Below are positions 1-3,000 of a stretch of 64,000 nt of DNA, one piece after another (the first letter of the stretch is position 1; each line of letters starts with the position of its first letter). Origin of the DNA: Escherichia coli. Lineage in GTDB: Bacteria; Pseudomonadota; Gammaproteobacteria; Enterobacterales; Enterobacteriaceae. Location: assembly GCF_051903065.1 (NCBI RefSeq), contig NZ_CP178438.1, one strand, 5' to 3'. The position numbers are program-made.

Positions 1-3000
1 AAGATGGATACCCACGCACGGCGTTACCGAATGCAATCGTGTCAAATATCATCCAAGCACCATAAAGAAAGGCAGCACCGGCAACGAACAGGCCAATGTA
101 AGTCCACATGCGCAGCGGAAAGGTAGAGAAGCTGGTGATCCCCTCAAGGGCAAGGTTCCAGAGTTTCCAACCGTTGAACTTCGTGCTGCCAGCTACGCGT
201 TCTGCGCGCGCATATTCAACCACATCAGTGCGTCCGCCAACCCAGCTCAATACGCCCTTCATGAACAGGTTGCGTTCTGGCATGAGCTTAATGTTTTCCA
301 CTACTTCGCGAGACATGAGCCGGAAGTCGCCGACATTCTCTTCTATCTGAGGGTTGCTGATTTTGTTGTGAAGTTTATAGAACCACTCAGCAGATTTACG
401 CTTCAGCCGGCTGTCAGTGGAGCGGTCAGATCGCTTAGCCAGCACCATATCAGCCCCGGCCTGCCACTTCTCGATGAGGTGAGGAATGACCTCAATCGGG
501 TCCTGAAGGTCAACATCAATCGGGATAACCGCCTCACCAGTTGCGTGGTCAAGCCCTGCGAACAGTGCGGGCTCTTTACCGAAATTACGGGTGAAGGAAA
601 GAGGAACGACAAGCGGATCAGCCACAGCAAGCGCGTTTATAATTGATTCTGTCGCGTCTTTGCTGCCGTCATTTATGAAGACTATCTCGACTTCATGCTG
701 CTGAAGCCCTTCAAATTCCCGAACAGTTTTATAAAAAATAGGTATCGCGTCTTCTTCGTTAAAGACGGGAACGACCAGAGAAATTTTCATTTCGCATCCC
801 TAAAGACAATGAACTTTGAATAAATAAAACCGCACACCAGACTGATGGCGGAGAAGGTGATAAGAGTGATAATTGGAGGAAGCGAGCACTTATCAGCAGC
901 CCATCCAACAGTAGCACTCAGTGTTCCCATGAACCCGACATATAACATGTAGCGCATCGTTGTAGTCGATGCTTTGAATGTGAATTTTGCATTCGCGAAG
1001 AAGCTAAAGCTCACAGCCACAACGAAACCTGCGAAGTTTGCCAGAGCCTGATTGGTATGCGCGGCATAGATACATACACCAAAAACCACCCAGTGTATAA
1101 GTGTGTTCAGCACACCAATCGAGGTGTACTTTGCAAATAGCTTTAACATTTCTTCTATCAGCTAATAATCAAAGGCATGAAGTCTATCATCCAAGTCTCA
1201 ATCGATCGATGACTTGCTGTGGTTGATGAGACAAAACTGATGCACACAAAGATTTGCACTGGATTGCAAGGCTTTGTGCTCTTCGATAGTTGTTAAGGTG
1301 GATCACTCCGGCTTTTCATCAATCCAGTCCGCCCACCACTGCATCATCTCCCTGCGCTTATCGAGATACTGAGCATGGTTGTAAATTCAACTAACCCAGT
1401 GCATTGACAAAAAATTAGTGCAAGAAGACAAAAATCACCTTGCGCTAATGCTCTGTCTCAGGTCACTAATGCTATCTAAGTAGTTGATTCATAGTGACTG
1501 GATATGTTGTGTTTTGTAGCATTACGCAGTCTATTTATTAGACTAAAGATATTGTAATGCATTGATATTAATGGTTTTTAATGTTTCACGTTCAGCTTTT
1601 TTATACTAACTTGAGCGAAACGGGAAGGTAAAAAGACAAAAAGTTGTTTTTAATACCTTTAAGTGATACCAGATAGCATTGCGCCATCTGGCAGAGTAAT
1701 TAACTAAACATCGCGGTAATCGATGCGCTTGCCAGAGAGTGGAAATGAACGTTAAACCCGACCATCGCGCCGCTGGCTCCTTCATCGACATCAATACGCT
1801 CTACATCCAGCGCGTGAACGGTAAAAATGTAGCGATGGGTTTCGCCTTTCGGCGGCGCTGCGCCATCGTATCCGGTTTTACCAAAATCGGTACGCGTCTG
1901 CAAAACGCCGTCTGGCATTGCTACCAGACCAGAGCCAAACCCTTGCGGTAATACGCGGGTATCAGCGGGTAAATTAACAACTACCCAGTGCCACTAGCCG
2001 GAGCCGGTTGGCGCATCCGGGTCGTAGCAGGTGACGACAAAACTTTTCGTTCCCGCAGGAACATCATCCCACGCCAGATGCGGTGAAATATTATCGCCAT
2101 CGTAACCCATGCCGTTAAAGACATGACGATGTGGCAACTTATCGCCATCGCGCAGATCATTACTGATGAGTTTCATTAGAATGCCTCCGGGAAACCTCGG
2201 CCTTCAGGCCGGGGAGGAAAGGAGGCGGTTTTCCGACTAACTGTACTTTGCATAATTACATTTTCCTCTTTAGTATGTGAACACATGAAACGCGCATATA
2301 AATACCGGTTTTACCCGACAACTGAGCAGGCTGAGCTTTTAGCTCAGACGTTCGGCTGTGTGCGCTTCGTCTACAATTCCATCCTTCGTTGGCGTACCGA
2401 TGCGTACTACGAGCGAAAGGAAAAGATCGGTTATCTACAGGCCAACGCTCGCCTTACGGCGCTCAAAAAAGAGCCTGAATACATATGGCTGAATGTCCCC
2501 TCCAGCAGTCGTTGCGCCACCAACAAGCCGCCTTTGCTAACTTCTTTGCCGGACGAGCTGCATATCCGGCTTTCAAAAGCAAACGGCACAAACAGGTGGC
2601 TGAGTTCACTGCCAGCGCGTTTAAACACCGTGACGGCGAGTTGTATATAGCAAAAGCAAGTCGCCTCTGGATGTTCGCTGGAGTCGAGAATTACCCTCTG
2701 CGCCGTCAACCGTTACCATTTCCAGAGATAGCGCTGGCAGGTACTTTGTTTCCTGCCTGTGTGAGTTTGAACCTGTATCAATGCCTGTTACCGCTAAAAC
2801 GGTCGGCATTGATGTGGGCTTAAAAGATTTATTCGTTACCGATACCGGATTCAAAACCGACAATCCCCGCCACACCGCTAAATATGCGAAGCGATTAACG
2901 CTGCTACAGCGATGTTTAAGCAGGAAGCAAAAAGGCTCAAGAAACCGTATTAAAGCCCGCTTAAAGGTCGCCCGACTCCACGCGAAAATCGCCGATTGCC

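Follow-up and report, generated by a model that had tools for sequence, protein, structure and literature searches.

The window analysed here, a stretch of 64,000 nucleotides of the Escherichia coli chromosome that begins within a prophage remnant at attλ, raises a question about the neighbouring gene ybhB: does the amber codon that interrupts its frame represent a genuine loss of the gene, or is it an error of sequencing, a stop that is read through, a favoured mutation, or one part of a decaying region? We consider it very likely that the stop is a genuine, recent and spontaneous TGG-to-TAG transition in the lineage of strains 23CRST027 and 23CRST031, and that the outcome is a null, neutral or nearly neutral ybhB pseudogene.

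The interrupted ybhB frame and its product

Translated from the minus strand, ybhB reads in a single frame that is interrupted once, by a stop at codon 61 (Table 1). The triplet is CTA on the plus strand and hence TAG in the coding sense. Compared with the intact allele of strains ECNB21-M121 and 33F4, which encodes WP_000767391.1, 476 of the 477 nucleotides are identical. The sole difference from these close relatives lies at window position 1995, where the plus strand carries T in place of an ancestral C. The first-pass annotation, made from the sequence alone, had reported an amber codon derived from TGG at this place, with both halves of ybhB in one frame and with the ribosome-binding site and the remainder of the gene intact. 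The minus-strand translation, the base that differs from relatives, the presence of GGAGG and the near-complete identity to the intact allele bear out all of these statements. Its expectation of a tryptophan at the stop is likewise well founded, as the codon is TGG in relatives and the equivalent residue is tryptophan in K-12 YbhB (1FJJ/1VI3) and in the paralogue YbcL (1FUX); in the Mycobacterium tuberculosis PEBP (4BEG) it is phenylalanine. The residues following the stop, in contrast, had been given with one residue dropped (GSG-stop-HW). The stop replaces the first tryptophan of the WWHW motif of YbhB, and the correct reading is GSG-stop-WHW.

Table 1. Positions of the features discussed in the text, in window coordinates unless an accession is given
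Feature	Position	Strand	Remarks
Prophage remnant, about 6.3 kb	1-1609, and upstream NZ_AP045789.1 1127072-1133091		Ends at the att core
attλ core GCTTTTTTATACTAA	1595-1609	+	attR junction; prophage remnant to the left, chromosomal ybhB to the right
ybhB, whole frame, now a pseudogene	1700-2176	-	158 codons and stop; conceptually a full PEBP/PBP domain protein
ybhB, 3' part	1700-1993	-	97 sense codons (W62-S158) and the natural stop; includes GETHRY
Chi octamer, lost	1991-1998	-	ybhB codons 60-62; wild type GCTGGTGG, here GCTAGTGG
Amber codon TAG	1994-1996	-	ybhB codon 61; TGG (Trp) in relatives
ybhB, part still translated	1997-2176	-	60 codons (M1-G60)
GGAGG ribosome-binding site	2184-2188	-	7 nt 5' of the ybhB ATG; same as in relatives
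TnpB (InsQ) gene remnant	2285-3401	+	Frameshifted; in the bioA-ybhB spacer
DUF3969-family pseudogene	16863-17240	+	Internal stop; between ybhL and ybhN
IS1A insertion	28606-29373		Between rhlE and espX2; the 9-bp direct duplication GAAAGATTG lies on either side

When the stop is repaired, the 158-residue product matches the Pfam PBP profile (PF01161) at 144.6 bits, above the gathering cut-off of 24, over profile positions 6-135 of 135, and is thus a member of the PEBP (phosphatidylethanolamine-binding protein)/YbhB family. The 60-residue fragment aligns with no more of the 135-position profile than positions 6-40. It keeps DPDAP (residues 52-56) and is parted by the stop from GETHRY (residues 111-116), so that the window holds no uninterrupted whole-domain frame with both DPDxP and the downstream histidine-containing segment. 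The 3' part of ybhB is no longer translated from the ybhB start; the next in-frame ATG, M87, opens a frame of 72 residues (1700-1918). The solved YbhB structure (1FJJ/1VI3) is one domain, and we infer that neither the 60-residue nor the 72-residue piece can fold as a PEBP. The allele would be null because 98 of the 158 residues of a single-domain protein of the PEBP fold are missing, and because the four classical amber-suppressor tRNA alleles, considered below, are absent.

The stop in other genomes and the age of the change

The ybhB segment is 100% identical in two complete RefSeq genomes, those of E. coli 23CRST027 and 23CRST031, both from human faeces in Ecuador, and four other genomes match it with one mismatch. 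The sequence of 23CRST027 (NZ_AP045789.1) equals the window base for base over all 64,000 nt, and that of 23CRST031 is identical to it over the first 25 kb (25,000 nt). The PGAP annotation of 23CRST027 classes ybhB (AC6IZ1_RS05475, ‘kinase inhibitor’) among the pseudogenes and adds the remark "internal stop"; the pseudogene status of the gene is therefore already known from RefSeq. The same stop is found in a draft genome of another strain (GCA_036912935.1), in which the chromosomal flank from the att core to bioB (1595-5176) is identical, TAG included, and the prophage end differs from the window at 13 positions.

These genomes bear directly on the possibility, raised in the first-pass annotation, that the stop is a sequencing error. 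An error of sequencing or assembly, with TGG as the real codon, could take this form, since errors could yield one substituted base such as this, and the complete genomes of 23CRST027 and 23CRST031 come from one project and may have methods in common. Against this, two separately assembled complete genomes, which differ in length and orientation, agree on T at 1995, and so does the unrelated draft with its diverged prophage end. Four further similar places are also among the matches listed for the 60-residue product. At the level of assemblies the same base has been recovered independently at least three times, and a sequencing error is therefore effectively excluded; we give this explanation almost no weight.

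The closest genome, that of ECNB21-M121 (meat, China), is separated from the window by 15 SNPs over 63.2 kb and one IS1 insertion. It has TGG at codon 61 and encodes an intact YbhB, and the nonsense base is its only difference from the window within ybhB. The codon is also TGG in K-12 and in all intact alleles examined, and a 50-mer centred on codon 61 detects TAG in 2 of 4440 complete genomes. The proximity of a relative that retains TGG in an otherwise identical frame shows that the change is derived and recent, and places the G:C-to-A:T transition along the branch of the 23CRST-type strains. The earlier proposal of a recent single-base nonsense change is thus supported by the alleles of related strains, those of ECNB21-M121 and 33F4 both being intact with TGG.

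The IS1A element between rhlE and espX2 is absent from the near-identical ECNB21-M121 and represents another recent event in the same lineage. Outside the window, the 23CRST027 genome contains ybdR (zinc-dependent alcohol dehydrogenase) annotated with an internal stop (NZ_AP045789.1, 974012-975250).

Readthrough, recurrence and the attλ neighbourhood

Full-length YbhB might still be made if the amber codon were read through, whether a suppressor tRNA or programmed readthrough were responsible. The downstream frame is perfectly kept, yet this is equally expected of a very recent mutation. There are no tRNA genes in the 64-kb window, and complete genomes were queried with tRNA sequences whose anticodon had been changed to that of the suppressor (supE, supF, supD and supP). 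The supE-edited query gave at least 155 laboratory-strain records among the matches listed, and the supE state was decided from the gln tRNA cluster itself. Read directly in 23CRST027, whose genome is identical to the window, glnX and glnV both have the wild-type anticodon CUG, so there is no supE. Full-length tRNA-Tyr(CUA) (supF) or tRNA-Leu(CUA) (supP) was found in no complete genome, and tRNA-Ser(CUA) (supD), among complete genomes, in DSM 498 only. An amber suppressor in the strain, a point left for checking by the first-pass annotation, is thus absent for all four classical alleles. Nor is the stop conserved among relatives, given the TGG of ECNB21-M121, the rarity of TAG among complete genomes and the presence of TGA at codon 61 in other lineages. 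In E. coli, UAG followed by U, as here, terminates translation efficiently. Amber suppression by the four classical alleles was rejected on the basis of the tRNA genes, and continued synthesis of full-length YbhB by any form of readthrough is extremely improbable.

Stops at codon 61 are not confined to this lineage, and this recurrence is the principal argument that the change was favoured and not neutral, either through selection for loss of YbhB or because codons 61-62 are mutation-prone within a Chi octamer. At least five independent events are distinguishable on different allele backgrounds: TAG arose three times, on the window allele (the window and L010), on a K-12-like allele (L005, L008 and L009) and on a third allele (L006), and TGA twice, on a fourth allele (L004 and L007) and on a K-12-like allele (L011). 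Wild-type codons 60-62, GGC TGG TGG, spell Chi (GCTGGTGG) at ybhB nucleotides 179-186, K-12 included. This is the Chi nearest to attλ on its bio side, and an exact octamer is absent from the position here. Bio substitutions of λ were reportedly the first DNA seen to have hot-spot activity of the Chi type. Two contigs from different samples (L012 and L013) end at ybhB nucleotides 182 and 181, one base before the variable base; a branch in the assembly graph between TGG and stop alleles in one sample would give such ends, and mixed alleles within a sample may be the cause.

The control for this recurrence, a look-up of YbhB products cut short at ten other codons, points the other way. Such products are common in public assemblies at many other codons: in counts that are rough, as they mix partial genes at contig ends with true stops and number contigs, not events, the exact 60-residue product that ends before W61 is on record on 55 contigs, compared with 150 for W36, 30 for Y51, 40 for W62, 773 for W64, 36 for Q78, 25 for Q93, 35 for Y103 and 37 for Y116. 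The change at W64 (L025-L030) is a real TGG-to-TGA stop on at least two backgrounds; it lies outside Chi and, with 887 index blocks as well as the 773 contigs, is far commoner than the stop at W61. Since truncations at other codons are comparable or more numerous in this rough control, we rejected codon 61 or its Chi as a mutational hotspot. Deamination at a Dcm site was rejected also, the plus strand reading CCAGC and not CCWGG. Repeated hits at W61 are expected, as at every nonsense-capable site of a dispensable gene, given hundreds of thousands of public assemblies, and nothing in these rough counts marks out codon 61 or the Chi octamer as unusual. With 25 other Chi octamers remaining in the window, the loss of this one through the amber change is probably a coincidence. 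We therefore regard a favoured or hotspot-driven change as very unlikely, although the recurrent stops at codon 61 in other lineages leave some room for selection as opposed to neutrality. Still less probable is the broader proposition that stops in the WWHW motif (codons 61, 62 and 64) recur because they are favoured, through an advantage in the gut or because Chi is mutation-prone or selected against; if true, the ybhB allele would mark parallel evolution and not drift.

The surroundings of ybhB offer another possible cause, and the first-pass annotation had read the stop, the TnpB insertion and the prophage end together as local decay around attλ. The annotation of the window includes four pseudogenes among its coding sequences, three of them within 1303-3401. 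The prophage remnant contains only a truncated integrase, an IS481 transposase, a hypothetical gene and an O-antigen glucosylation module (gtrA, gtrB and a gtrC-like DUF6056 gene). In K-12, bioA, ybhB and ybhC are co-directional with a bioA-ybhB spacer of 58 nt, whereas here bioA and ybhB are 1.3 kb apart with the TnpB remnant on the opposite strand between them, an insertion that might uncouple ybhB from bioA transcription and so relax selection. Relative to the intact 376-residue copy at the same site in Rb-3, this remnant lacks 13 nt near 2496 and 1 nt near 2655, both through deletion. No tnpA is annotated beside it.

The comparison with relatives, however, separates these lesions from the stop. 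ECNB21-M121 has a prophage remnant and a frameshifted TnpB identical to those of the window, both are also present in 33F4, and ybhB is intact in the two strains. The TnpB and prophage lesions are therefore older than the stop and independent of it, so that the lesions of this region are of more than one age. Of 5426 complete genomes, 343 carry the TnpB element at the bioA-ybhB site; in Rb-3, the only carrier examined for an intact element, tnpB and ybhB are both intact. Conversely, stops at W61 occur where neither TnpB nor prophage is present (L004, L006 and L007). Most of the window is undamaged, with about 58 of its 62 annotated coding sequences intact. Beyond the 1303-3401 cluster, the other 60 kb contains one further pseudogene, of the DUF3969 family, which is common to ECNB21-M121 and so older than the ybhB stop. 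Regional decay around attλ is thus a weak and unneeded explanation, and it is very improbable that the stop forms part of it, while some mild relaxation of selection on ybhB may have followed the TnpB insertion.

Significance and comparison with known systems

We therefore return to a spontaneous mutation in a single E. coli lineage as the preferred explanation. A G:C-to-A:T transition converted the tryptophan codon into an amber codon, ending translation of ybhB after Gly60, and the truncated product would amount to a loss of YbhB function. The allele may then persist as a neutral or nearly neutral pseudogene because ybhB is dispensable. According to a review of the family, most strains tested can grow in the laboratory without their ybhB homologues (PMC8793217). 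The many truncated products in public assemblies agree with this reported dispensability, and the gene appears to be often lost in nature.

The significance of the allele is very small: it is an ordinary null allele, one more of natural origin, of a dispensable gene of unknown role, and is limited to a small clade. Strains 23CRST027 and 23CRST031 nevertheless form with ECNB21-M121 a near-isogenic natural pair, ybhB-null versus intact, that is usable for tests of the function of PEBP homologues.

If the stop is disregarded, the conceptual product matches K-12 YbhB of E. coli (1FJJ, 1VI3; PF01161) at every residue but one, V125, which replaces isoleucine. As in K-12, DPDAP and GETHRY are both encoded, but the frame here is cut at codon 61 and gives the first 60 residues only. 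The ybhB pseudogene of NZ_AP045789.1 is the same sequence, and its annotation is silent on the codon, the base and the recency of the change. Classical laboratory amber mutants (lacZ, T4) in suppressor-free hosts show the same transition from sense codon to UAG and the same truncated, inactive product when no suppressor is present; the allele described here differs in coming from a natural isolate, with no selection scheme, in a host without supD, supE, supF or supP. The closest parallels are the other natural nonsense alleles of ybhB in wild E. coli (W61 TGA, W61 TAG and W64 TGA), which likewise result from a single G-to-A change at a tryptophan codon of the WWHW motif and likewise cut the protein at 60-63 residues. 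Unlike the allele in the window, they arose as independent events on other backgrounds, some with TGA and most without the TnpB and prophage context.
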